DNA from: an uncultured virus (IMG/VR IMGVR_UViG_3300030109_003613)
Taxonomy: Duplodnaviria > Heunggongvirae > Uroviricota > Caudoviricetes
IMG/VR virus record: IMGVR_UViG_3300030109_003613
DNA length: 24,255 nt
Direction: 5' to 3' (one strand)
Shown: piece after piece, positions 6,603 through 24,255 of the stretch
How positions within the stretch are numbered: position 1 is the first letter of the stretch
How the letters are laid out: every line of letters begins with the position of its first letter
Made by a program: the position numbers and the translations under genes
Notes under the pieces: generated by a model
Seen by the model: only the letters and a program-made list of their open reading frames with translations
What the model was told of the DNA's origin: nothing
Database searches by the model: none

Positions 6603-9600
6603 TTAATAGTTAATATTTGAAGGGCTAACAGGACCAAATGTACCTGTATAGATATTACCTGCTCCAAAATCTGTACTGCAATCCTTACAGAAATTTCTTG
6701 CAAAGTTAATAAAATTATCGATATAATTAGTATTATCTGAAAAATTATACGTATTAAGGTCTTGACACAGCTTCCAATTTCCAGATAATGCGCCCTGTGG
6801 TAATTCTGGATTATATGTTGGATTTCCTGTCGTAAAATTACCTCCTAACTTCCATATCAATCCACTAGGCATTTTTATTACGTCTCCCCACTGCAAAGAT
6901 GCACTTGCAAAAAAGTTTCCTGGATCTAAAATTTCAGTTCCAGTATCTGCATTTGTTGTATGAGTAGCAAATCCAGAAGCTGTTGAATCGTGATTAGCTC
7001 CTGTATTAGGACCTCCTTGTACCCACTGTTCGTGACATGTTAAAACAACAGGAGCATCATTTGGAGTTGCATTATCCTCACAATTATATAAACATGCTAA
7101 GTCTGGATCTGTATTAAACATTACATAATTAATTAATGTAAGCTTCCAAAAATTTAAAACTGAACAATCATCTGCTAATCCACTTGCTATTTTTCTTCTA
7201 TAATCATATCCTTTTATAGTTAAACAATGTCTAACTGTATCTAAATATTTTGGATAAACATTTCTATCTAATCTACAAGGATTTACAGGTATATCATATA
7301 TACACGAACCATCATCACCAATTGCAGATGGAGCGTAATTTATTGCTAAAGGATTTGTACATCCTAAATATTGACAACTGCCATCATCACAGACAGCTGT
7401 TGAATCATAGTTAACAGCATTTGGATCAGTACATCCTGCTGATGTATCCATACTTACAGAAAAATCATGTTGAACCGTACAACCAGTTTCTAAATCTTCA
7501 ACTAAAATATAATATGCTCCAGGATATAATGCTGCTTCTGCTGTTGAACTTTGTTGAGTCCCTTGTGTACCAGCAGTACTATAAATTGTAGTTCCTGATT
7601 GATGTATATTACTTACAGTAGTGAAATTTATAGCTTGCCATGCATAAGTATTACCCGGTCCTATTACTATTGCGCTAAATGTATTAGTTCCATTATAAGT
7701 ATTAACTTGAAAACTAAATGTACCATCTTGATTTCCTAAACATCCTGTATTTTGAGTTGCATTTGTAATAGTTACATTATCAATTGTAGGAAGTATTCCA
7801 GGATCTGAACAATATGTACAACAACTTGTATCATTATAATTTGCATTTGGAACATAATTTCCATTACAATCATAATTTATATTTATAGCTGATGGATCTA
7901 AACACGCATAGTATATACAAGAACCATCATCATAAGTTGCTCCTTGATTATAATTAGCAGCTAATTGATCCATACATCCTCCTACAGGATACATACAAGT
8001 TCCATCATCACAAGTAGCAGTAGGATTAAAATTAAGAGCATTTGGATCCATACACCCATAATCACAAGATATACATGAATTATCATCAACTGTTGCTGCT
8101 GGGTTATAATTAACTGCAGTACTATCCATACATCCACATACAGGTAATGTAGCTGTTCCAAAACTTATATCTTCAAGACAAATAAAAACTCCTGCTGCAT
8201 TTGTAAATCCTATTTCTACCTTCATTGTAATAGTAGGATCAGGATGCGCAATCTGATCACTTTGTATAATCATAGGATTATTAGGACCTATTGTATAAGT
8301 TGTTGGATTTTGAGAAGTATAAGGTGAACCATCTACATACCATTGTAAATCAATAGTTCCTCCTAAAGTACTTTCTAACATAAATTGCGCTTGAGCTCCC
8401 CAACATCCTACTACATAACTTATATTTGAAAAACTAAGAGGACATGTGTATGTACAAAGAGTAGGATTACTAATTGCTAAATCTGCAGGTACACTAACAT
8501 TATAATTATCTGCACTAGTATCCATACAAACTTTTGTTTGAACACTACCAAAACCCCATGAAAAACATTCTTCTATTTCTATAGTACTTCCTGTTCCGTC
8601 ATTTATTTTAATTTTAGCACCATAATGAGCATATGCTAATCCTGTAAAGTTATGAACAGGAGACGCTAATCCTGTTTGAGTAGCAACTGCTGATCCTATA
8701 ATACTTGTTTCATCTCCAGCTATTGATAATTTATATAAAGTAATTTCATATGTAAAACTAGCTGTTAATTGTAATGCTAATAATAAAGGATCAACTAAAA
8801 ATTGAACACTAAACTCACCGTCTGTTGCTGAACTATTAGTAGTAGGTTGTGTAGTTAAATTTAAAACTTCAAATAATTGTAAAATAGAAGTACCATCAGC
8901 ATCTTGAACCCATCCGCTTGTAGCATCACAATACGCGCAAGAATTATCATCAATTACAGCTAAAGCGTTATAATTTAAAGCACTACTAGTAGTACATCCA
9001 GTTACTGCAGGGTTTTCGTTTATATATACATTAAATGTATCTACACATCCAGCATCATCTGTTACCGTACATTGATAAGGTAAAACACCTGTAGTTGGTA
9101 ATAGAGATCCCCATGTATGTTTATATCCTGCAGAAAAAACTAAAGTATTTGTACCTGCTGCAGTTGCACTTACTTGATTTCCATTTATATCAACTAATTC
9201 AAACTGAGTAAGACCTGAAGCATCAGAGCCAATATCTCCCGCAAGAGCTTGTCCAACAAAACTATTTGTCGGTATACCTGTTCCAGTAACTCTCATTCCA
9301 GTAGTTATTTGATCATCTGCAGAACCAACAGTTACTTGATGTTCTGTTCCTGAAGTTGTATTAGTTGTACAAGAAATAGATGCTGTATTACCACCTGTTG
9401 GCGGCGCATCTTGTGTAATTGTTAAACTTGGATGTGATATTGTATATGTATAATGACCAGTACTAAAAGGAGTTCCTAATCCATTTGCTCCTCCTAAACT
9501 TGGATCAGTCATATCTATTGTAATAGAACCGTCAGCTGTTCCAAATGTAGCATTTGATGATTGTGCTGCTGCTTGAAATCCACTACAGTCTACAGCACAA

Positions 9601-11081
9601 CATGTTCCTCCTGGAGGAGAAATAAAATTAGCATCCCATGTACCATCTAAATAACTAGCATTAATTGTATTTCCATCACAATCTTTACTTGTTGTAATAA
9701 AATAACTAGGACTATTTTGCTGTAAACAAACTTCAAGATCTGGTATATTAGCTCCTGTATAACAAGTATTTAAATTATCAGCATATCCAATTGTATTAGC
9801 AAAATTTAAAAATTTTATAGTTGGGTTATCAAAATCTGGCACTCCTGCAAAAGTTGGCATATCTGATAATTGAAATGCATTACTCCCATTTAACATTGCT
9901 TCTTGTATAGCAAATGTTAATTCAAAAACATTAATTGCATTTAACATTGCAGGACTTAAATCTAATAATTGATTATAAGATTGCTCTTGAATTTGTAATC
10001 TAATAGCATTAAATCCTTGCATATCAGAAACACTAGCATCAGGTCCTAATACATAACCTCCTACTATACTTTGTTGCCAAGATTTTGGAACATTTACATT
10101 TACTCCAGCTTGAGTTTGTGTAGCATGCCAATCATCAGTTTGACCTATAGTCATATCTGAATATACATTAGTTTGAGAAGTATTATGAAAAGCTATTCCT
10201 TTAGAAATTCCTTCTGCATAGCCAACATTACTTGCTAATGTAGCATTAACAGATGCATTCCAATCATCATATCTAACTAAAGTATTATCTGTATTTGGAG
10301 TAATAAAATTTAAATAATAAGCATCTCCAGCTGCAGTTCCTGGACTACTTATTTTATTATAATTACTAAATTGATAATCTCCTTGTAAACCAGCAGTTAT
10401 CTCACCTGTTGCTGCACTACCAACACAATTTTCGATATTTCTACTTTCAGAAAAAACATTACTTCCATCTGAAAATACACTGCCTGAACTTTCTTGTCCT
10501 GCTATATTTACTGTATGTCTAGTAAGAGTACCACTTTGCCATCTAACATCTATAACAAATGTTTGCATAGCAAGTGAGGCATTATTAGGAAATTGTAGTT
10601 CAAAATAATGTGTTTGACCTAATGCATTATAATGTGTTACACCATTTAAAACTGGTTGTGGATAAGGAGCTGGATACGCTGATGATACATCTACTACTTT
10701 ATCACATACAACACAAGCACTATAACTAACAATTACTATAGGATTACCTCCTTTATGAGAAGAATGTCTAAATCCGTATACAGTAGCATATCTTTTATCA
10801 AAAGGTATTTGAGCATTTCTTGCAAATTTTGCAATAGCCTGATCTGTATTTATTTTTGAATTTTTAGTAAATTTTTCTCTTGCTGCTTGTTTAGCAGTTT
10901 GCTGTCTTCTTTTAAATTTTTCTTTTTGAGAAAGTTGTGCATTAAAAGCATTATAAGCACCTGAATCTGTAGATGCTAATTCTTTAAGAATTTCATTACT
11001 AGAACTAGATGATTCACGAGACGTTTCAGATCTTTCTGACCCTCTAGAACTACCACCATATCTGTCTTCTTCTGTTGCCAT
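6603..11081 (-). CDS. Giant (1492 aa) adhesin-like virion protein with SprB-like and GCxD-DDGSC repeats and a hub-like C-terminus
   Basis: About 8 GCxDxxAxNY...DDxSC repeats; three DG(S/E/T)(I/F)...Y.V.V.D..GC SprB-like units; helical Cys-containing C-terminus ending FARNFCKDC. Confidence 0.7.
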   Translation of the reverse strand: MATEEDRYGGSSRGSERSETSRESSSSSNEILKELASTDSGAYNAFNAQLSQKEKFKRRQQTAKQAAREKFTKNSKINTDQAIAKFARNAQIPFDKRYATVYGFRHSSHKGGNPIVIVSYSACVVCDKVVDVSSAYPAPYPQPVLNGVTHYNALGQTHYFELQFPNNASLAMQTFVIDVRWQSGTLTRHTVNIAGQESSGSVFSDGSNVFSESRNIENCVGSAATGEITAGLQGDYQFSNYNKISSPGTAAGDAYYLNFITPNTDNTLVRYDDWNASVNATLASNVGYAEGISKGIAFHNTSQTNVYSDMTIGQTDDWHATQTQAGVNVNVPKSWQQSIVGGYVLGPDASVSDMQGFNAIRLQIQEQSYNQLLDLSPAMLNAINVFELTFAIQEAMLNGSNAFQLSDMPTFAGVPDFDNPTIKFLNFANTIGYADNLNTCYTGANIPDLEVCLQQNSPSYFITTSKDCDGNTINASYLDGTWDANFISPPGGTCCAVDCSGFQAAAQSSNATFGTADGSITIDMTDPSLGGANGLGTPFSTGHYTYTISHPSLTITQDAPPTGGNTASISCTTNTTSGTEHQVTVGSADDQITTGMRVTGTGIPTNSFVGQALAGDIGSDASGLTQFELVDINGNQVSATAAGTNTLVFSAGYKHTWGSLLPTTGVLPYQCTVTDDAGCVDTFNVYINENPAVTGCTTSSALNYNALAVIDDNSCAYCDATSGWVQDADGTSILQLFEVLNLTTQPTTNSSATDGEFSVQFLVDPLLLALQLTASFTYEITLYKLSIAGDETSIIGSAVATQTGLASPVHNFTGLAYAHYGAKIKINDGTGSTIEIEECFSWGFGSVQTKVCMDTSADNYNVSVPADLAISNPTLCTYTCPLSFSNISYVVGCWGAQAQFMLESTLGGTIDLQWYVDGSPYTSQNPTTYTIGPNNPMIIQSDQIAHPDPTITMKVEIGFTNAAGVFICLEDISFGTATLPVCGCMDSTAVNYNPAATVDDNSCISCDYGCMDPNALNFNPTATCDDGTCMYPVGGCMDQLAANYNQGATYDDGSCIYYACLDPSAININYDCNGNYVPNANYNDTSCCTYCSDPGILPTIDNVTITNATQNTGCLGNQDGTFSFQVNTYNGTNTFSAIVIGPGNTYAWQAINFTTVSNIHQSGTTIYSTAGTQGTQQSSTAEAALYPGAYYILVEDLETGCTVQHDFSVSMDTSAGCTDPNAVNYDSTAVCDDGSCQYLGCTNPLAINYAPSAIGDDGSCIYDIPVNPCRLDRNVYPKYLDTVRHCLTIKGYDYRRKIASGLADDCSVLNFWKLTLINYVMFNTDPDLACLYNCEDNATPNDAPVVLTCHEQWVQGGPNTGANHDSTASGFATHTTNADTGTEILDPGNFFASASLQWGDVIKMPSGLIWKLGGNFTTGNPTYNPELPQGALSGNWKLCQDLNTYNFSDNTNYIDNFINFARNFCKDCSTDFGAGNIYTGTFGPVSPSNINY
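7297..9002 (-). repeat. Coding GCxDxxAxNYxxxAxxDDGSC repeats (~24 aa unit)
   Basis: Units near 8930-9000, 8450-8530 (degenerate), four tandem at ~7815-8135, two tandem at ~7300-7437. Confidence 0.9.
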
Positions 11082-15305: not shown

Positions 15306-16760
15306 TTAAGATGCTGTACAAGTGATGTCAAGCGAAGTATCAAATCTCCTAAGAGCAATACCAGCTGTTTTCAACATATGTACAGACGCCCCGTCAACGT
15401 CAGACGCTCTAGAAGAAGTTGATTCAAATCCTCTAGGAACAACTGAACCAGCTACACACCATCTCATAGACTCACGACCTTTTTTATTGATCATTTGTAG
15501 GTTGTTTTGTCCATCATAATTTGATTGATCAACAAATACCATTCTATAAGATTCAAGTGAATAACCTGTTACAGGGTGTTTTGATCTCGCTTGAGCAACA
15601 GCACCATGGTCAAATAATGGTAATTTTACCACATTAACCGTGTGACCGTCTACGTGCTCGTACGAGTTGAAGTAGCCTGTTAAACCAAGGCTTCTTCCAG
15701 AGCCAGTGATGAATCTGTTCTCTCCACCAACTTTCCATGATCCTGCAGATCCTGAGAAGTGATTTTTAAGAGCTTCATCAAATTCTCTAGCTCCACCAGT
15801 ACCAGTATAAAGCGTAACTTGCTTTTTACTAGCATCAGTCATTTGATAGAATAAATCACCAATAATGTTTTTCAACTTAGTCTCTGTCATAGTAGAATAA
15901 GTATCAGTATTAACGATTTGCTCTAAAAGACCAGGACCAATAATAACTGGTTGCCCGTTTTCGTCTTTCATGTAAGTATGACCATTTGAGTCATAAGTTT
16001 TTTGTCCGTACCAATAGTACATCTCACATTCTTCTTTAAAGTCAAGCATGTGTAAGTACTCTTCGTAGTCCATCCAAAGTTTAGTAGTTTTTCCACCTTT
16101 TGTTGGAAGTGAAAATTCTGCTACAAAATCTTTAGCGTTTCCAGACATGTGGTAAGATTTACGAACTGTAGTCAGTTTGTTTCTTACTTTACCTGGAGTT
16201 TCCCAGTTAGAAGCGTTACCTCTTGAGAAGTCAACACCAACTGGTGCATACATTTGAGCCCAAAGAGCTCCTGCTGTAATATCTGCTGCTGCAACTGTTG
16301 CTGTAGCTGCTGGATTTACAAGCTGTAAAGTATATTTCCAAGAAGATCCTCCAGCTACTTGCTGTGGTTCTTTCATAATACGAGCTTGTGTCCCAGCTTG
16401 AGATACAATTACGTATGGAAATACGAAATGTTTGTCAGGAAATTCAAGTTCAAAACTTGCTCCTCCTAATCCAACGTTAGACGTTGAAGATGGTGTTGCT
16501 GCTACCGGTCTTGTTCTCAATCTGTGTGTTGCCACTCTATACTCATATTCTAAGCGATCGATAGACTTAACATTACCAACACCTTCTGTTAAGAAAGATA
16601 ATGGGAATCTTTTATCATCTTTACCCGCTAAGTGAGTAATGATTGGAGATAATTCAGTAGGCTTAGACAACAACGCATTTGCCAGACTGTTCATGTCAGT
16701 CATCTGTGAATCGTTATAAAACGTTTTTTGCACAGAGATGTTTGTTCCGTTTAAAGCCAT
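15306..16760 (-). CDS. Major capsid protein (crAss-like, HK97 fold)
   Basis: 484 aa; crAss MCP-like motifs RNKLTTVRKS, GPGLLEQI, YTGTGGAREF, LPLFDHG...HPVTGYSLESYR; canonical synteny. Confidence 0.93.
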   Translation of the reverse strand: MALNGTNISVQKTFYNDSQMTDMNSLANALLSKPTELSPIITHLAGKDDKRFPLSFLTEGVGNVKSIDRLEYEYRVATHRLRTRPVAATPSSTSNVGLGGASFELEFPDKHFVFPYVIVSQAGTQARIMKEPQQVAGGSSWKYTLQLVNPAATATVAAADITAGALWAQMYAPVGVDFSRGNASNWETPGKVRNKLTTVRKSYHMSGNAKDFVAEFSLPTKGGKTTKLWMDYEEYLHMLDFKEECEMYYWYGQKTYDSNGHTYMKDENGQPVIIGPGLLEQIVNTDTYSTMTETKLKNIIGDLFYQMTDASKKQVTLYTGTGGAREFDEALKNHFSGSAGSWKVGGENRFITGSGRSLGLTGYFNSYEHVDGHTVNVVKLPLFDHGAVAQARSKHPVTGYSLESYRMVFVDQSNYDGQNNLQMINKKGRESMRWCVAGSVVPRGFESTSSRASDVDGASVHMLKTAGIALRRFDTSLDITCTAS

Positions 16761-16804: not shown

Positions 16805-17947
16805 TTATATACTAAGATCTAAATCATCAAGGTTAACATTTTTAGTTCGTCTAGTAGATCGTTTAGCGCTTTTTACAGCCTCTTCATTTTTACCAATCTT
16901 ATCTCTTAACGATTTTGCGCTCTTAGTACGCGCTTTTGTGTCAATCATTTTACTAAGGTCGAAACCTTTAAACATTAAATAATCAACTGCTAATTTAACT
17001 TCTAAATCAGCATTAGTATGATCCAAATCTCTTTGAGTCTTACCTTCTTTATTTACAGGGGTTGTAAGATAATCAAAAAACTTATCTTTTTCTCTTGATG
17101 GGATTGGTATCCCAGCAACTTGATCGTTTTCATCTATTGTCTTAGCAACTCCACTCCAAAATTCATTCATCTGCGCTTCTTGTTCTCTTTGTGAAACTTT
17201 TTGTTGTTCCAACATTTGAGATCTTTGAGCATTTTGCATTTTAGCTAAAGCATCTTTAGCTTGTCCTGCTTTATTGTATAATTTACCACTATCTTCTAAA
17301 TCATTTATCATTTCATTAATAAATTCTTTGTCGTGGCCTTTTATATTAAAGTACTCACCTAAAAGCGCTTTTTGAGTCGCGTGATCTTTTTCATCAAGAG
17401 TAAACTCTCCATAATCTGAAAGAGGATCATTTGATCTCATAAATTGTTTTGAATCTCCTCCTGACAAAACATATTCTAAATGTTGTTTTACTAGAGGAAA
17501 AGCCTCTAAAACTTCATCTATTCTATCATCTGCCATTTGAGATGCAATATCCGATGTCATTTCTGCAAGTCCCTCAGCGGTATCTGCGTACTTAGCATCG
17601 CTTTCATATCCTAATTTAGTTAGAACTTCTGATACTACTGTATCTTCTTCAGTTTCATTTTCAGGATCTATATCTTTGTCTTCTTCTTCTTCTTCTGTTT
17701 CTTCAACTTTTTCTTGTTGTTCAACTTCTTCTTCTTCTTCCTCTTCTTCTTCTTTAGATTCTGCTGGCGCTTCTAAGCCATCTACTTCTAACTCATCAAT
17801 AGCATCTTCTTTTGCTACTTCTTCTTTAGGTTCTTCTTTTGTTTCCGGTGCGGCAGGTTCTGCTACTGCAACGGTGTCGATTCCATCACCTCCGATGACA
17901 TCATCGAAGCTAATATCGTCTAGTTGTATTCTTTCATTTGGGTCCAT
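16805..17947 (-). CDS. Acidic scaffold-like protein preceding MCP (crAss 'gene 77'-like)
   Basis: Very acidic, disordered N-terminal ~100 aa, helical core, basic C-terminus; directly upstream of MCP as in crAss-like phages. Confidence 0.7.
   Translation of the reverse strand: MDPNERIQLDDISFDDVIGGDGIDTVAVAEPAAPETKEEPKEEVAKEDAIDELEVDGLEAPAESKEEEEEEEEEVEQQEKVEETEEEEEDKDIDPENETEEDTVVSEVLTKLGYESDAKYADTAEGLAEMTSDIASQMADDRIDEVLEAFPLVKQHLEYVLSGGDSKQFMRSNDPLSDYGEFTLDEKDHATQKALLGEYFNIKGHDKEFINEMINDLEDSGKLYNKAGQAKDALAKMQNAQRSQMLEQQKVSQREQEAQMNEFWSGVAKTIDENDQVAGIPIPSREKDKFFDYLTTPVNKEGKTQRDLDHTNADLEVKLAVDYLMFKGFDLSKMIDTKARTKSAKSLRDKIGKNEEAVKSAKRSTRRTKNVNLDDLDLSI
17678..17752 (-). repeat. Coding (GAA)n poly-Glu low-complexity tract
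   Basis: Runs of TCT/TTC on the plus strand encoding EEEEEEEEE and EEEEE. Confidence 0.85.
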
Positions 17948-18037: not shown

Positions 18038-20515
18038 TTATTTATTTTTATTTTTAATTTTTCTTAGTTTTTTACGTGTTCCTCCCTTTTTAAATTTATA
18101 ATTAGGATTATCTCTAAGCAATTTCAAATATTCATTTTTAGATAAAATTCCTTGTGGGTTTCTAACTTGAGTTCCTTTTGGACCAAATATTGTAGTAATA
18201 TTCGCACCCCTACTTACAAAATTAGGATTAACAATAGATCCTGGAGGTATTTTAGCAAGATCATCTACACTTTTTCCTAGTGTTGTATATACACCTCCAC
18301 CCAGCTCTAGAGGTAAATCAAATTTACCTTTATTCCATTTTCCTACATTTTGAGTATATGGAAATTGAAAATTTAAAGCATCTGTTCTTTTCTTAATTGT
18401 ACTAACACTTTCTGGTCCTACTAAAGGATTTCCTCTACCCATCTTTATTATATAGGGATTTCCTCCTTTATTTCCTCTACCATATAAATTTATTAGATTA
18501 GAGTGATCCCTTGACCCACTACCTAAAATCCAAGATTGATCACTAGTGGTACTTAATACATCAAAAGGGGTTTCTCTTTGTAATTGTGAATATCCTGTAC
18601 GTCTTCCTGTAGTTGGTACTTTTGGTATTGTTGTACCATATTCTGCAGCTTTAGTTACTTCATCTATCTTTGAACCAAATGGAACATCTACCACTCTATA
18701 TAGTGAATGCGGATCTTCTATTAAATCTGTGTTTTTCCCAGAAGGTTTAGACTTAGTAATAATATTTACATTTTTAAAATCAGAAGGTTTTTTTGAAGAA
18801 CCTTTAATCAAGTCTTTTACTTTTTGATAACCTTTTTTAACGAGTCCACCAGGAACAAATGGTAATAGAAGTCCTGCACTATGTAAAGCTGCTTCTCCGT
18901 AATCTCCTGTTGCTACATTTTTAACAACATTTTTAGCATCTATGATTTCTCCTGAAATAGGAGCAAAATTCATAGCACTTATATCATCATCTGATACAGT
19001 TTTAGTCTTGCCTCCTGGTGCTAAACTAAAATGCTCAAGATCTTTGATACCTTGATATATTTTATTTCTAGTACTAGTATCAGTTGGTTTTATAGTACCT
19101 TGTTTACTTTGACTTTCTTGAGATACTTTTAATAAATGAGGCGGTATATTAGCTATAACATTAGGATCAATAGTTACTTTTTCTCCTCCATTTTTATATT
19201 GTAATATATCTTTTGCTTTATACATTCCTCCGTGCTTCATATAAGATTTTCCTACTTCTTCATATTTTTTCTTATAACCCTCTTCAAATGTTTTATCACC
19301 TTGAAATAAAATTTTATTTACATAATTTTTTGATTCATATATAGGTTTATTTGTTTTAGTTCTATGATACTTAGGTAAATCTTTAATCCAATCTAAACCT
19401 GAATATATATCATAGCCATCATCTTTCATTTTATTTAAAGTATTAACTAATTTTGGAGGCCCCATATTATAAGCAGCTAATGCTTTTGCTCGTCTTACAG
19501 TTTCATTTGCAGATTTTTCTTGACTATTCCAAGGTCTATTCATTAGATCTTCCATATACTTTTGCTGTAAATCAATAGATAAATCTGTATTAGTTTTCAA
19601 ATCTTGAAACTTAGCTCCTTCTGGAACCCATCCTCTACCTTGCATATACTCAAAAGTCTGTTCAGTAATTTGAGATAATCCTATTGCGTTAGCAGGACTT
19701 ACTGCTTTTGGATTAAAACTTGACTCAGTAAATAATTGCCTATTTAAAAGACTATCCATTGGAATATTTGATTTATAAGGAATGCCTCTATCTCCATATC
19801 CTTCCTCTTCTTTTTTTATACCTGCATCTTGAGGAGTAGGATGAAGTCCTCCATGTTTTAATTTAACATTTAATCCAGAATCAACAGGTTTTTCAGTAGA
19901 GGTACTATAAACAGTGCCCTCAAACGTAAAAGTCTTTTTCTTATTTTTTTTAGCTTTTGCTTTAGCTTTATAGAATTCATCAAATGGTTTTAAATCATCA
20001 TAATAACCACCTTTTTTATATTGTCCTAAATTTTCTTCAACTGGATCAATTTCTCTTCCAATTGGTAAATTAGTCATACTAGGAGGTGTTGATTGATAAG
20101 ATTGAACTAAACCTCCAGATTTATATACTCTATTAGTACCTCCTATAAGTGCTTCAGTACTATATGGGTCACCTGCTGCCCCTGTACCCCACATTGCTGG
20201 CATATCACTAGCATCTTTGGTAGGATCAATTAATCCAGCTACTCCCATAAAAGGTTTTAAACCTTTACTTGCAAATCCTAATAAATTAGTTGCTTTACTT
20301 ACACCTTTTTTTATTAATCCTTTTACACCCATTGTTTGAGTGAGATCAGCAGCTCCTTCTACATAACCTCCAGTTGCCATTTGTTGAGGTTGTTCTTGCT
20401 GAAGAGATTGCATAAGCTCTTGCTGTTCAGCTTTACGGAATAAATCTGAAACAGATCCTTTATAGTCATTAGCAATTGCTTGCTTTAATATTTCCATATA
20501 CTGACTAGACTCCAT
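18038..20515 (-). CDS. Multidomain putative virion cargo protein: SLT lytic transglycosylase + pre-toxin-TG-like + possible ADP-ribosyltransferase-like domain
   Basis: SLT motifs ESSFNPKAVS, GLSQI, ALAAYNMG, ESKNYV; PT-TG-like FAPISGEIIDA...GDYGEAALHSAGLLLPFVPG; LYR...STT pattern; TAATG overlap with portal stop. Confidence 0.75.
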   Translation of the reverse strand: MESSQYMEILKQAIANDYKGSVSDLFRKAEQQELMQSLQQEQPQQMATGGYVEGAADLTQTMGVKGLIKKGVSKATNLLGFASKGLKPFMGVAGLIDPTKDASDMPAMWGTGAAGDPYSTEALIGGTNRVYKSGGLVQSYQSTPPSMTNLPIGREIDPVEENLGQYKKGGYYDDLKPFDEFYKAKAKAKKNKKKTFTFEGTVYSTSTEKPVDSGLNVKLKHGGLHPTPQDAGIKKEEEGYGDRGIPYKSNIPMDSLLNRQLFTESSFNPKAVSPANAIGLSQITEQTFEYMQGRGWVPEGAKFQDLKTNTDLSIDLQQKYMEDLMNRPWNSQEKSANETVRRAKALAAYNMGPPKLVNTLNKMKDDGYDIYSGLDWIKDLPKYHRTKTNKPIYESKNYVNKILFQGDKTFEEGYKKKYEEVGKSYMKHGGMYKAKDILQYKNGGEKVTIDPNVIANIPPHLLKVSQESQSKQGTIKPTDTSTRNKIYQGIKDLEHFSLAPGGKTKTVSDDDISAMNFAPISGEIIDAKNVVKNVATGDYGEAALHSAGLLLPFVPGGLVKKGYQKVKDLIKGSSKKPSDFKNVNIITKSKPSGKNTDLIEDPHSLYRVVDVPFGSKIDEVTKAAEYGTTIPKVPTTGRRTGYSQLQRETPFDVLSTTSDQSWILGSGSRDHSNLINLYGRGNKGGNPYIIKMGRGNPLVGPESVSTIKKRTDALNFQFPYTQNVGKWNKGKFDLPLELGGGVYTTLGKSVDDLAKIPPGSIVNPNFVSRGANITTIFGPKGTQVRNPQGILSKNEYLKLLRDNPNYKFKKGGTRKKLRKIKNKNK

Positions 20516-22794
20516 TATTTGCTATCAGATTTTTTATTTTTAGCTGCTTTTTCTTTTACTTTTGTTTCTTGTTTTTTATTTGACTCTTGAGCTTTATTAG
20601 ATCTAGTCTTTTCTCTACTCTCACTTTCTTTTATTGACAGTTCTCTTTCTTTAAGATCTAATTCTCTCATACCTTTTTCAAGGTTTAATTGAGCATTACT
20701 ATTATTATCTTGAGCATGAATCATAGCAACTTTGATTTGTGTTTCTCTATCTTTCTCTTTATTCATATCTTCTCTTTCCATTCTATCTTGCTCTTGTTGT
20801 ATCTGTGCTTCTTGAGCCGCCTGTTGAGCCTGTTGCTGTTGTTGCTCTAATTCTTGTTGAGCTTTTTCTGCAGAAGCTATTTTTAATTTAATTTGAGAGA
20901 AACTATCTGAATCAAACATTTCTGCAATTGTTGAAGCAGGTACTCCATTCTGAACCATAGATTGAGAAAGAGCTTTTAAGCTTTCTAGTTTATCTTGATC
21001 TTTACCAGAATCAGATAAAAAGATTCCGTACTCAGACTCCATATGTTCCATACTACTTAAATCTAAAAAGTCTGTTGTACCGTCAGGCATAACATACATA
21101 GATTTTTTACCAGTTAACCATGCTTCTTTAGAATAATCTAATAATGCTTGAAGATCTCTTTGTTCCATTCTATTAAATTTTCTAAATAAATCCTCAGTAA
21201 TATGAGATGATTGTACAATAGCTTGCTGACTTGCAGCTTTACCATCATAACTTCCTATTTGTCCTTGTCTTTGTCTATTTACTCCTGCAAGTTTTTCCCA
21301 TTCCTGCATAATAGATTCTAACAAAGCAATATATTGTTCTATTGTTTTAATAGACATATCCAGCACGGATTGATGCTGTGGGTTGAGTTGTATTCCTTCT
21401 TTGTTGTAATCTACCCAAGCAATACCCGTACCTTCAACGTAATACATGAATTTATCCATATCCCATTTTTTAGGGATCATGTTAATATCAAATTGCGCTA
21501 TAATATCTTTACTTCTTGCAATAGCTAGTTCTAATCGGTATTTATAAATATTGTAATTTAACTGATAAGCAATACCTAAAGAAACTAATGAAATATTTTT
21601 TGTATTTATATCTGAATATCTTCTACCATTTATTGGAAGTTTACATTTAGATGGATTATCTAAAGACATTCTTTGATTAACAATTGGATGCATTTTAACA
21701 TACATTCTACCATCTATTCTTGTTCCTTCCCATACTTCATTTACCCACTTCCATGTAAGTTTAGCACCTTGATCTTTTAATTCTTGTGGCAATCTAAATC
21801 CATCTTCTACTTCCATTTCCTCAATAGCCCCTGTATCTGGATCCATATATGTTACAAACCCAATTCTTTTTCTAGATTTCCAATATACATTTACAACTTC
21901 AATTAATCTGTTTCTAAATGCATTAGGATCTTTACTCATCTTATCTGCATATAAGAAATAAGAATCAGACTCTGAATGTTGAGGATCTTCTAATTCTAAT
22001 ATTTGCTGTTCTGTTAGATATTCATAATATCCATCTATAACTGTAGATGCGTGTACAAATTTTCTAACTAATGCCCAATCTCCGTCTTCTACAAATTCTA
22101 AATCTGGATCAAGATCATAATCTACATCTAAAGGGTTTAAAATTTCTAGAAATGGTTCTTTATTTTTAACTCCCCTCCTTGTATAACATTCTCCTGATAC
22201 TAAAAAATGAAACCACGCTTTTTGCAATTTATCATGCACTTCTGAATTTTGCATAATGTAATTAATAGCATTTTGCCCTTTAATAGCTCTGTTATCTACA
22301 TAACTCATTTCAAATTGCTCAAGAATATGCCCTGGAAGTTGCACATCTTGCATTTCCACTCCAGTTTCCATACCATTCTCTGCCATTTGATTTGCAAATT
22401 GTGCTTGAAGATTTCTCATTATAAGTTCCTTCTTAGCTTCTTCTTTAATAGAAACAGAATCTGCATTTTGTACAGTAACGGTGAAATTGAGAGGCCTTTT
22501 GGCTTTCTCGCCTAGAAGAAGATCGACTATAGGTTTGATTATGGGATAATTACGCATTTGTGAAGGGAAATTCTTACGGGATTTGCCGTAAGGTTTTAGT
22601 ACGTAAGAATAGTCTACCTCGTCAATAACACCGTTGTAATAATCGTACATTCTTTTTAAATCATCCTTGTGGGATGACCCTGAAAAGTTTCCAGAATTAG
22701 AAATATCAATAAAGGCTTCAACGCAAGCCTCTTGCCATTCTTTTGTTTTTTTGCTCTTAGACAATTTCTGCCTAGGTATTTTATTATATCCCAT
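20515..22794 (-). CDS. Portal protein, crAss-like (759 aa from ATG 22794)
   Basis: Position between terminase and capsid genes; crAss-type motifs (PRQKL, NYPIIKPIVDLLLGE, YWKSRKRIG, WVNEVWEG, LPINGR, GVNRQRQG); Q-rich coiled-coil C-terminus. ATG 22794 preferred over the TTG at 22803. Confidence 0.92.
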   Translation of the reverse strand: MGYNKIPRQKLSKSKKTKEWQEACVEAFIDISNSGNFSGSSHKDDLKRMYDYYNGVIDEVDYSYVLKPYGKSRKNFPSQMRNYPIIKPIVDLLLGEKAKRPLNFTVTVQNADSVSIKEEAKKELIMRNLQAQFANQMAENGMETGVEMQDVQLPGHILEQFEMSYVDNRAIKGQNAINYIMQNSEVHDKLQKAWFHFLVSGECYTRRGVKNKEPFLEILNPLDVDYDLDPDLEFVEDGDWALVRKFVHASTVIDGYYEYLTEQQILELEDPQHSESDSYFLYADKMSKDPNAFRNRLIEVVNVYWKSRKRIGFVTYMDPDTGAIEEMEVEDGFRLPQELKDQGAKLTWKWVNEVWEGTRIDGRMYVKMHPIVNQRMSLDNPSKCKLPINGRRYSDINTKNISLVSLGIAYQLNYNIYKYRLELAIARSKDIIAQFDINMIPKKWDMDKFMYYVEGTGIAWVDYNKEGIQLNPQHQSVLDMSIKTIEQYIALLESIMQEWEKLAGVNRQRQGQIGSYDGKAASQQAIVQSSHITEDLFRKFNRMEQRDLQALLDYSKEAWLTGKKSMYVMPDGTTDFLDLSSMEHMESEYGIFLSDSGKDQDKLESLKALSQSMVQNGVPASTIAEMFDSDSFSQIKLKIASAEKAQQELEQQQQQAQQAAQEAQIQQEQDRMEREDMNKEKDRETQIKVAMIHAQDNNSNAQLNLEKGMRELDLKERELSIKESESREKTRSNKAQESNKKQETKVKEKAAKNKKSDSK

Positions 22795-22800
22795 AACTTG

Positions 22801-22808
22801 CAAATTTA
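22801..22808 (-). promoter_or_regulatory. Putative Bacteroidota -7 promoter element (TAAATTTG) before portal
   Basis: Exact TAnnTTTG match in the terminase-portal intergenic region, 6 nt before the ATG at 22794; no clear -33 TTTG seen. Confidence 0.5.
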
Positions 22809-22877: not shown

Positions 22878-24255
22878 CTAATGATAGTTTAAATCAAACC
22901 ATTTATCAGATGATCTGTCTTCTAATATATCTTTAACTTCTGCATTATATAATTCCCTGCTGTGATACATTCCAATCATTAATGCCATAACACGGTCAAA
23001 GTTACCTTGTTGATTAAACTTAATTAATTCTGTTAATAATGCTGGATCATATATTTTATGTAAATTTAAAGTTTGTTTTCCATGCTCATCTGTACTTCTT
23101 ACAGTATTAAGCCAATCTCTAATATATATTTCTCCTTGTCTTTTTCTAGCTTCTGTCATATGCATGCCATATTGACGTTTTACTGTCCTACTTCTAAGCT
23201 CTTTTTTATCTAGCATTTCAAATTCTTCTTGAAGTTTATGTAACTTTCTATGTCTTTTTGCGTAAGCTATAACTTCACCACGATCATTCTCAAATCCTAT
23301 TTTACATCCATAATAATCTGCTAGCATAAATAAATTTTTATTATACTCATCTTGAGAATGAGGCCTACCTACATAACTAGCTACAATCATATCATCAGGC
23401 CTAGATAAATTATTAGCTCTTTTTATTACATAAGCTGCTCCTAAAGATGAAGAGTCAGCTGATTGATTTTGTCCATAAGGGTCATGACATAATACATATA
23501 AATTTCTAGGAACCTGTTGTTTTTCATTTTTATAAGGAGCTTCATATATAACTACAGCTCCTGTAATATCATCATCTTTTCTATGAGGAAATTTTATTAT
23601 TTGTCTTTTATCCCCGTCAATTGTAAATAATATTTTACCATCTTGTCCATAATAAAACTTACCTACAGTTCCAATAGATTGTAAATTCCTAGATTTTACA
23701 TTATTATACTGCTCTTGTAAAGATGCCACATCAAATAAATTAGCAGTAACTCTTAATGTTGCTTCTTGAGGAGAAAAAGGGTGCTCAGCTATATATTGGT
23801 CTAATGATTTAGCATCGGCAGCACCTTTTTTCTTTTCCCTCATTTTTTCTTCATATTCAATAGCTTCTTTTTCTAATGAATTACCTTGATCATCTATAAA
23901 TCCATCTAAGTTTTTTTGTATTGGAATAAAGTATCCACACCTAGTTCCCATAGCCCCTTCATCCCATATATTTTCATAATCCATACAATCATATGCTTCT
24001 GGATTATAGAATATCTCCTCCATAGCCTCAAAATCAGCTCCTTCAGTACCACCCGTTCCAAAAGCTATCATCATTCCTAATGTTTTTGCTCCTTGTCTCA
24101 TTGTTGGCATAGTTACCTCCCAAGCTTTTAATAATCCTGGAAAAGATCCTGCCTCTTCAAAAAATATTAATTCTCCTGCTTTACCCCTTACTTTATCTGG
24201 CGCATCTTTTAAACTTACCCCCATTATTTGAGATTTCATCCCCATTTCAATTTCT
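22878..24255 (-). CDS. terL: Terminase large subunit, 5' truncated by window edge
   Basis: Walker B-like LIFFEEAG, FGTGG coupling motif, RNase H-like nuclease motifs (CHDPY...DSSSLGA, FENDRG, FDRVMAL); frame is open from 24245 to the window end (EIEMG), so the true start lies outside; directly upstream of portal. Confidence 0.93.
   Translation of the reverse strand, partial: EIEMGMKSQIMGVSLKDAPDKVRGKAGELIFFEEAGSFPGLLKAWEVTMPTMRQGAKTLGMMIAFGTGGTEGADFEAMEEIFYNPEAYDCMDYENIWDEGAMGTRCGYFIPIQKNLDGFIDDQGNSLEKEAIEYEEKMREKKKGAADAKSLDQYIAEHPFSPQEATLRVTANLFDVASLQEQYNNVKSRNLQSIGTVGKFYYGQDGKILFTIDGDKRQIIKFPHRKDDDITGAVVIYEAPYKNEKQQVPRNLYVLCHDPYGQNQSADSSSLGAAYVIKRANNLSRPDDMIVASYVGRPHSQDEYNKNLFMLADYYGCKIGFENDRGEVIAYAKRHRKLHKLQEEFEMLDKKELRSRTVKRQYGMHMTEARKRQGEIYIRDWLNTVRSTDEHGKQTLNLHKIYDPALLTELIKFNQQGNFDRVMALMIGMYHSRELYNAEVKDILEDRSSDKWFDLNYH

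Follow-up and report, generated by a model that had tools for sequence, protein, structure and literature searches.

The DNA analysed here, a stretch of 24,255 nucleotides from an uncultured virus (IMG/VR record IMGVR_UViG_3300030109_003613; hereafter the window), covers the structural gene block of a crAss-like phage, and our subject is a single gene within it, whose 825-amino-acid (aa) product repeatedly carries a short peptide ending in Gly-Gly. Every gene in the window lies on the minus strand, as do all window features given below. Read in the direction of the genes, the large terminase gene (22878-24245) is followed by the portal protein gene (20515..22803; PHROG 6547, E 5e-126), the 825-aa open reading frame (ORF; 18038..20515), a conserved 380-aa gene that we call p380 (16805..17947) and the gene for the Crassvirus major capsid protein (15306..16760; Pfam PF23898, E 3e-82), after which come ring and tail genes. 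The start codon of the 825-aa ORF overlaps the portal stop codon in a TAATG (20513..20517), as a preliminary description of the window had read it, and the gene is translationally coupled to the portal gene. The next gene, 90 nucleotides (nt) downstream, is p380; no small immunity-type ORF stands right after the 825-aa gene, the conserved p380 being there instead. We refer to the position between the portal gene and p380 as the slot and to its products as slot proteins, and we regard the window's copy as a putative cargo protein of the virion with a mosaic ("polymorphic") make-up.

AlphaFold2 was run on the two halves of the 825-aa protein, with alignments of 39 and 20 rows. The product opens with a helical hairpin (residues 1-40, 20396..20515; helices 3-15 and 22-40), predicted with a local distance difference test score (pLDDT) of 89-96, which is the constant part of the family. 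Beyond it lies a low-confidence, probably disordered region (residues 46-238, 19802..20380; pLDDT <50) that contains a Gly/Ala-rich hydrophobic stretch, a Lys-rich stretch and the Gly-Gly peptides MATGG, YKSGG, YKKGG and LKHGG. The hydrophobic stretch, rich in Gly, Ala and Lys (residues 51-100, 20216-20365; GAADLTQTMGVKGLIKKGV...FMGVAGLI), is similar to a Gly-rich hydrophobic segment at the N-terminus of a 648-aa protein encoded in the cargo block of a relative, G007, and is possibly membrane-active. Within the same region, residues 129-170 (20006..20131) are the C-terminal half of a DUF192-like module, a remnant recognised by BLASTP to the homologs P0003 and P0006; homologs match DUF192 in Pfam, and in those that carry the module it closes with YQKGG (alignment A1).

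The centre of the protein is an SLT lytic transglycosylase domain (residues 245-428, 19232..19783; pLDDT >93). Its identity is established by Pfam (PF01464, 49.5 bits against a cut-off of 21.3, residues 263-365), by matches to MltC and EmtA in a search of PDB sequences and by the conserved pair E264 and S265, which is almost invariant among the 39 homologs; family-1 lytic transglycosylases have their catalytic Glu in an E-S motif at the start of the domain. The SLT part also matches PHROG 342, "internal virion protein with endolysin domain" (E 1.6e-12). It is followed by low-confidence helices (residues 445-600), and residues 440-600 matched no Pfam family at E<=10, a search in which HMMER filters may drop weak matches. 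Among these helices is a conserved hairpin that precedes the toxin-like domain (residues 515-557, "ISGEIIDAKN...LPFVPGG", 18845..18973; conserved in A1), modelled as helices 84-96 and 100-111 of the C-terminal half with low to moderate pLDDT. Residues 521-550 (82-111 of the model) superpose on the 30-residue coat-binding helix-turn-helix of the P22 scaffolding protein with a root-mean-square deviation (rmsd) of 0.7 and a Z score of 3.5, which is probably a trivial hairpin match.

The protein ends in an alpha/beta domain (residues 602-812, 18080..18712; pLDDT 70-93) with a putative ADP-ribosyltransferase (ART)-like fold. Foldseek hits were re-ranked and an independent search of 48,161 chains was made; the best structural matches were all ART/RES-type toxins (Z 5.2-5.4, rmsd 4.2-4.9 over 128-137 residues), and the Foldseek E value for this domain was 0.2 or worse. 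Members of the ART superfamily have a catalytic triad of the R / S-T-S / E-x-E type. Homologs of the domain conserve "LYRVVD" and "STTSD", with no clear E-x-E and a sole candidate acid in "PLELG". The match to an ART-like fold is weak but consistent. The preliminary description had assigned this half of the protein to a PT-TG plus ART-like block; the ART-like part of that proposal has weak matches at Z ~5 and the PT-TG part is unsupported, neither a PT-TG nor an ART family being matched by Pfam at E<=10 in residues 440-825. After the last Gly-Gly there remains a basic tail of 13 residues (TRKKLRKIKNKNK, 18041..18079), identical to the tail of the slot protein in L005. A MuF domain (PF04233/PF06152 superfamily) was not matched by Pfam at E<=0.01, and the N-terminal hairpin matched no MuF family at E<=10.

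Seven copies of the Gly-Gly peptide had been reported, and each lies precisely where it was placed. MATGG (20366..20380), past the hairpin and a Gln-rich spacer, is the first junction motif and has the counterpart MQEGG in P0017 and L027. YKKGG (20006-20020) is the terminal junction motif of the DUF192-like remnant. LKHGG (residues 219-223, 19847..19861) stands upstream of the SLT domain, and the consensus of the 39 homologs has a GG about 10 residues ahead of the SLT start. Between the SLT domain and the C-terminal half is a double junction, MKHGG-(12 aa)-YKNGG (19184..19240): MKHGG (residues 426-430) is at the C-edge of the SLT domain, where pLDDT falls at residue 429, and YKNGG is in a low-confidence stretch. 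FKKGG (residues 808-812, 18080-18094) closes the C-terminal alpha/beta domain at its C-edge, and 9 of 9 close homologs keep this final GG without change, conservation across 20 being at least 90%. The copies therefore sit in low-confidence linkers or at domain C-edges of the AlphaFold2 models, as the preliminary description had suggested should be looked for, and none falls inside the SLT core, with LKHGG ahead of the modelled domain (245-428) and MKHGG at its end. The earlier proposal that the motifs bracket discrete modules accordingly holds for the copies in linkers and at domain edges and fails for YKSGG (20111-20125). This copy is an internal turn of the DUF192-like remnant, not a junction; it aligns with a "..D-K-E-G-N-LVxSY" turn of the truncated module, and its GG is not conserved in homologs.

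An eighth match to the pattern [MYFL]-[KA]-x-G-G, LAPGG, lies at residue 498. Eight matches compare with 0.25 expected in the 825-aa protein, a count reached by 0 of 20,000 shuffles, for a pattern that was chosen after the data had been seen. The 18 other ORFs of the window (~6,900 aa) contain no match. GG alone is mildly enriched in the protein (13 against 8.3 expected; 1102 of the 20,000 shuffles reach 13). At the DNA level the window's copies share only 8-11 nt, and their Gly, Lys and Tyr codons are those common in the gene; long DNA repeats were rejected as the cause of the motif on the strength of that limited sharing. We also set aside the idea that GGAGG acts as an internal Shine-Dalgarno sequence with an internal start, given that the spacing to an ATG is too short and most of the following codons are not start codons.

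We then compared the slot among related phages. The portal protein had 509 relatives in IMG/VR, of which the best 80 loci (66-86% identity) were taken together with two found earlier. Both flanks were present in 46 loci, and between the portal gene and p380 there was one ORF in 44 of these and two ORFs in the other 2, with slot ORFs ranging from 311 to 1477 aa. The N-terminal hairpin could be aligned in 59 of 59 distinct first ORFs downstream of related portals, and G20 in it is at least 90% conserved. What follows the hairpin is variable in content and order: the SLT domain precedes the ART-like domain in the window and follows it in L010/P0003, a lysozyme-like module precedes the ART-like domain in L005 and follows it in L011, and relatives add DUF192-like, HExxH and other modules. 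Among 45 distinct complete slot proteins the motif [FYW]xxGG occurred 4.05 times per 1000 aa, against 0.76 after shuffling, with 1 to 10 motif copies per protein. The preliminary description had seen here a swappable cargo cassette between portal and scaffold. These 46 loci, with their range of lengths and shuffled module order, bear out the cassette; the label "scaffold" derives from gene position and weak Atlas leads.

Three features of individual slots were also recorded. The slot is split into two ORFs in L071:8417-13451 and L086:8417-12264; both second ORFs are without the hairpin and start with a basic leader ending in YQTGG, and one of them has two HExxH motifs and a sub-threshold reprolysin-like Pfam match. 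A strongly conserved peptide after the last GG, x-[KR]-[KR]-K-C-[KR]-Y-G-C-W, forms the C-termini of slot proteins in L047, L055, L058, L059, L060, L063, L067, L092, L099 and others, and in peptides of this KKCKYGCW type two cysteines stand three residues apart. A small Cys-rich insert (...GSDGRACWDGYRYAGTENGKDKCVP...) found in L058:8267-11005 and in P0008 behaves as a cassette with GG on both sides in unrelated mosaics.

The boundaries of shared sequence in these proteins coincide with the motif. When slot proteins were aligned to one another with BLASTP, 53% of 1205 internal alignment C-ends fell within 5 residues of the second G of a motif, with a peak at 0 to +2, compared with 5% of 2250 random positions and 21% of 543 alignment starts; the alignments behind these counts are not independent events. 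Breakpoint hot-spots were found at 74 of 149 internal motifs, against 14.3 expected. We also took every GG at a breakpoint with no motif presupposed: an aromatic residue stood at -3 in 33 of 41, a hydrophobic residue at +1 in 33 of 41 and K or R at +2 in 22 of 41, the corresponding numbers for other internal GGs being 75, 124 and 70 of 272. From the residues around breakpoint GGs we define the junction peptide as [YF]-[KQ]-x-G-G-[FLV]-[KR]. In one subfamily entire modules come and go exactly between two junctions (...FKTGG-module...FKSGG-YKKKCKYGCW against ...FKKGG-LKKKCKYGCW), and the junction DNA on either side of the gained or lost module has 12-14 of 15 nucleotides in common. The motifs persist at junctions while module content varies, a point that the preliminary description had proposed to test. 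We conclude that the architecture is very probably mosaic, with modules swapped between phages as units that end at GG. On this basis a slot protein would consist of the constant N-terminal hairpin and a variable string of modules, each ending in a junction peptide, and in the window phage these modules would be the truncated DUF192-like remnant, the SLT lytic transglycosylase and the ART-fold toxin-like domain.

The motif extends beyond the slot. An exhaustive HMMER search returned 513 relatives at E<=0.001, and the best 150 of these, together with the set from a word-based search, gave 165 family proteins for analysis, which were clustered at 50% identity. F, Y or W stood three residues upstream of GG at 363 of 1098 sites (33%), against a background of 9.7% and a range of 6-18% for fifteen other dipeptides. 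At least one motif was present in 133 of the 165 proteins and at least three in 63. Successive GGs were most often spaced 7 residues apart (35 observed, 5.9 expected), the GG-flanked 7-mers being of the type [WFY]-[LKR]-x-K-Y-x-x, for example FKSKYQV, WLDKYAN and YRSQYEE. A mostly basic N-terminal leader ending in the motif was found in 22 of the 165 (6.2 expected), and a tail of at most 16 residues past the last GG in 54 (16.5 expected); these tails are aromatic and basic, as in YRSKYGW and KKCKYGCW. More distant SLT-bearing relatives have W-L-D-K-Y (W-L-x-x-Y), which occurs in the last 14 residues of 29 of the 165 proteins and the first 14 of 17. In other lineages x-LPKAQ follows GG, at 10 sites in 6 family proteins and also in the distant relative G003, and in 0 of the 45 slot proteins. 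Given that [FLV]-[KR] is found here and W-L-D-K-Y or x-L-P-K-A-Q elsewhere, the side before GG is universal and the side after it lineage-specific. Pfam recognised only SLT and DUF192 in 73 homologs.

The slot proteins of G007 and G009 have the highest or near-highest motif density in their genomes (3.4 and 6.4 per 1000 aa, against 0.86 and 0.70 genome-wide), and the 648-aa protein of G007, whose gene is next to the muzzle and giant-protein block, has a basic leader and YNKGG at its N-terminus. In G003 (120 kb) the overall density is 0.9 per 1000 aa, and four large proteins reach 1.4-3.7. Nothing comparable follows the portal gene in the gut crAss phage cr1_1. What cultured phages have in common with the window phage is limited to the portal (~30-34% identity) and the SLT part, and by tblastn the SLT parts of relatives match the T7-type internal virion protein D.

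Several known systems resemble this one in part. The T7-type internal virion protein D (gp16) is an ejected internal protein with a family-1 lytic transglycosylase, as the product described here is predicted to be, the SLT domain being N-terminal in gp16. Unlike the window protein, it is a single conserved, non-mosaic protein that has no junction motif and is not portal-adjacent. Virion precursors are processed at di-glycine by the adenovirus protease adenain and by the African swine fever virus (ASFV) protease pS273R, and ejection proteins of phiKZ/SPN3US-like giant phages are cleaved at maturation. The likeness to the processing proposed below is that partly basic proteins inside the virion are cleaved at short motifs, ending in Gly-Gly or of other kinds, and lose terminal peptides; a difference is that the adenain consensus has its hydrophobic residue at P4, and the junction peptide at P5.

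Polyvalent proteins (Iyer et al. 2017; PMC5512222) likewise combine several unrelated effector or enzyme domains in one polypeptide, are encoded among late or virion genes and show extensive mosaicism. They include lysozyme-type, ART-type and zincin-peptidase modules, and both their delivery with the DNA and their processing into units have been predicted, the latter by peptidase domains and on the grounds that the domains differ in subcellular target. The window protein combines an SLT and a separate ART-fold-like domain in the same manner and differs in having no peptidase module, and the text of that paper mentions neither "linker" nor "glycine" and describes no junction peptide, hairpin or fixed portal-p380 slot. 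MuF polymorphic toxins and SPP1 gp7 (Jamet et al. 2017; PMC5576092) are encoded immediately downstream of the portal gene, as are the slot proteins in 46 of 46 loci with both flanks, and the toxins have a constant N-terminal part and a variable C-terminal toxin, frequently an ART. They have been proposed to be carried in the head and injected, and gp7 binds the portal. In contrast to these toxins, the window protein has no MuF domain, has several modules rather than one toxin and is accompanied by no small immunity-like ORF; its lineage is crAss-like, and the window shows no sign of lysogeny. Finally, the crAss001 cargo proteins C1 (gp45) and C2 (gp46) occupy the capsid and tail in a partly unfolded state (Bayfield et al. 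2023; PMC10172136); short ordered segments of them bind the portal and tail rings and long stretches are disordered, in a crAss-type virion as here. Their genes, unlike that in the window, come after the muzzle gene, and no SLT, ART or junction motif is reported for them in that paper; the window protein had no sequence match to crAss001 chains at E<=0.1. In the literature searched (subscription-only papers and supplements excluded) we found no description of the junction peptide.

Because of its gene position, the match of its SLT part to a T7-type internal virion protein and the biology of crassvirus cargo proteins, we infer that the slot gene of this uncultured marine crAss-like phage specifies a polymorphic cargo (ejection) protein, carried in the virion, whose constant hairpin would serve as the handle for incorporation. 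What the junction peptide does in such a protein is less clear, and our preferred reading, that it is a processing site, is offered as plausible though somewhat short of probable. The cut, after or within Gly-Gly, would be made by a peptidase that is either associated with the virion or supplied by the host. It would separate a wall hydrolase acting in the periplasm from an effector acting in the cytoplasm, and would remove the short basic leaders and tails. The candidate enzyme would lie among the zincin-like HExxH modules of some slot proteins and of the giant cargo proteins of relatives. The conserved side before GG, the short basic leaders that end in the motif, the short C-terminal tails and the HExxH modules all fit processing. 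HExxH was found in zincin-like contexts in 12 of the 45 slot proteins, and giant proteins encoded by G007 and G009 have it too; one HExxH slot protein had a reprolysin-like Pfam match below threshold (E 4.5e-4, 20.9 bits against a cut-off of 27).

A number of observations weigh against processing. The preliminary description had proposed a search for a Ulp1/adenain-like or other protease, and this search, made in the window and in related records, found no maturation or Ulp1-like protease. The window ORFs contain no protease family recognised by Pfam, PHROGs or NCBIfam, adenain/Ulp1-like and prohead proteases included, and the Ulp1-like family PF02902 had no match in five related records, of which three are 97% complete or more. 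In G007, which is 100% complete, no prohead, T4 gp21, HK97-type or CE-clan protease was found by Pfam in 75 of 79 ORFs or by PHROGs in 56 of 79, and the only match to a peptidase family was Peptidase_S74 in a fibre-like protein. The window's 825-aa protein itself has no HExxH. Searched with tblastn against 50,697 GenBank phage records, the whole protein and its C-terminal half gave no match to the non-SLT modules in cultured phages. The low confidence of the linkers may partly reflect alignment depth, the alignments being so shallow that "disordered" is provisional. Cutting at the extreme N- and C-termini would free few residues, and motif pieces in these places suit a tethered docking peptide at least as well; the GG-7mer-GG units look like displayed short linear motifs. 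Since neighbouring junctions are near-identical over 12-14 nt, in-frame recombination could help to explain the breakpoints without any cleavage. In addition, the crAss001 structure paper (PMC10172136) contains no occurrence of a protease or of cargo-protein cleavage.

One alternative is chance: a protein rich in Gly, Lys and Tyr might yield the pattern without any function, and the after-the-fact choice of pattern and the mild enrichment of GG by itself could be taken in that sense. We give this practically no credence: the shuffles, the aromatic enrichment across the 165 proteins and the coincidence with homology breakpoints refute a compositional artefact, and the motif is conserved at aligned positions in homologs. 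More serious, if distinctly unlikely in our estimation, is the idea that the motif is mainly an evolutionary device, a flexible hinge whose codon-biased DNA (TTT/TAT AAA NNN GGA GGN) supplies microhomology for in-frame shuffling without specific recognition of the protein. It would account for homology ending at GG, for the gain and loss of a module exactly between two junctions, for the nucleotides shared by the junctions that flank such a module and for the common codons used by the window's copies. It does not so readily account for the constraint at breakpoint GGs compared with other GGs (80% against 28% aromatic at -3, 80% against 46% hydrophobic at +1), for retention of the motif across lineages less than 50% identical and at termini that have no shuffling partner, or for the fact that the window's seven copies have so few nucleotides in common.

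A role in recognition without cutting would make the junction peptide a multivalent docking or packaging tag, that is, an aromatic and basic peptide that Gly-Gly tethers would hold out between modules and at the ends of the protein. Its proposed partners are the capsid interior, p380, the portal or tail-barrel rings, the packaged DNA or a host envelope protein, and it would hold the unfolded cargo or guide its ejection. The motif pieces at the very ends of proteins, W-L-x-x-Y among them, the spacing peak at 7 residues with its recurrent 7-mers and the conserved C-terminal tails (for instance ...GG-x-KKCKYGCW) all speak for such a tag, as do the hairpin-less proteins that open with a basic leader and the motif, namely the second ORFs of L071 and L086 and the 648-aa and 360-aa proteins of G007. 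Nevertheless we think it unlikely, though a serious contender, because the constant hairpin already offers an incorporation signal and is a more obvious candidate for one than the motif, because the copy number varies from 1 to 10 per protein and because all that is conserved across lineages, an aromatic residue, K/Q and GG, would make a small binding epitope. The processing, docking and hinge readings are not mutually exclusive. In its fullest form, the processing reading describes a true polyprotein strategy: a portal-docked precursor of exchangeable modules that would be cut at an aromatic-K/Q-x-Gly-Gly code by a virion-carried peptidase, possibly an unclassified HExxH module, the code doubling as an in-frame recombination joint. 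This would be the tailed-phage counterpart of adenovirus and ASFV di-glycine maturation in marine crAss-like and other Bacteroidota-type phages; we regard this complete scheme as conceivable and on balance rather unlikely.

The downstream flank of the slot deserves mention in its own right. p380 is syntenic and 43-58% identical in 4 relatives, and the leads to its function are weak: Pfam gave an ARM-like (ARM-repeat) match at E 1e-5, below the cut-off, and in the Atlas it fell with viral hypothetical clusters and chance-level scaffolding-protein clusters (0.82-0.83). p380 may be a so far unrecognised crassvirus scaffold, or a receptor for the cargo. Elsewhere in the window, a 1492-aa ORF (6603-11081) has no match in Pfam, PHROG or NCBIfam; G007 has a 1527-aa ORF at the matching place of its structural block and its muzzle protein elsewhere in the genome. 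A small endonuclease (1333-1701; PHROG 452, E 4e-39) is kept in G007, where Pfam finds it SNase-like. G007 itself, a complete 86-kb relative (L105-L109), encodes crassvirus capsid, ring and muzzle proteins as well as a thioredoxin, a SET-domain protein, Cpn10, a spore-photoproduct-lyase-like protein and a family-A DNA polymerase.

The proteins that a phage injects decide the first minutes of infection, in which the wall is crossed, defences are disarmed and the host is taken over. A code that marks the boundaries within such cargo lets the proteins be split into functional units from sequence, so that new effector modules can be found. If the joints are cut sites, tailed phages would have a maturation system of the polyprotein type; if they are docking tags, they could be used for loading foreign proteins into capsids.

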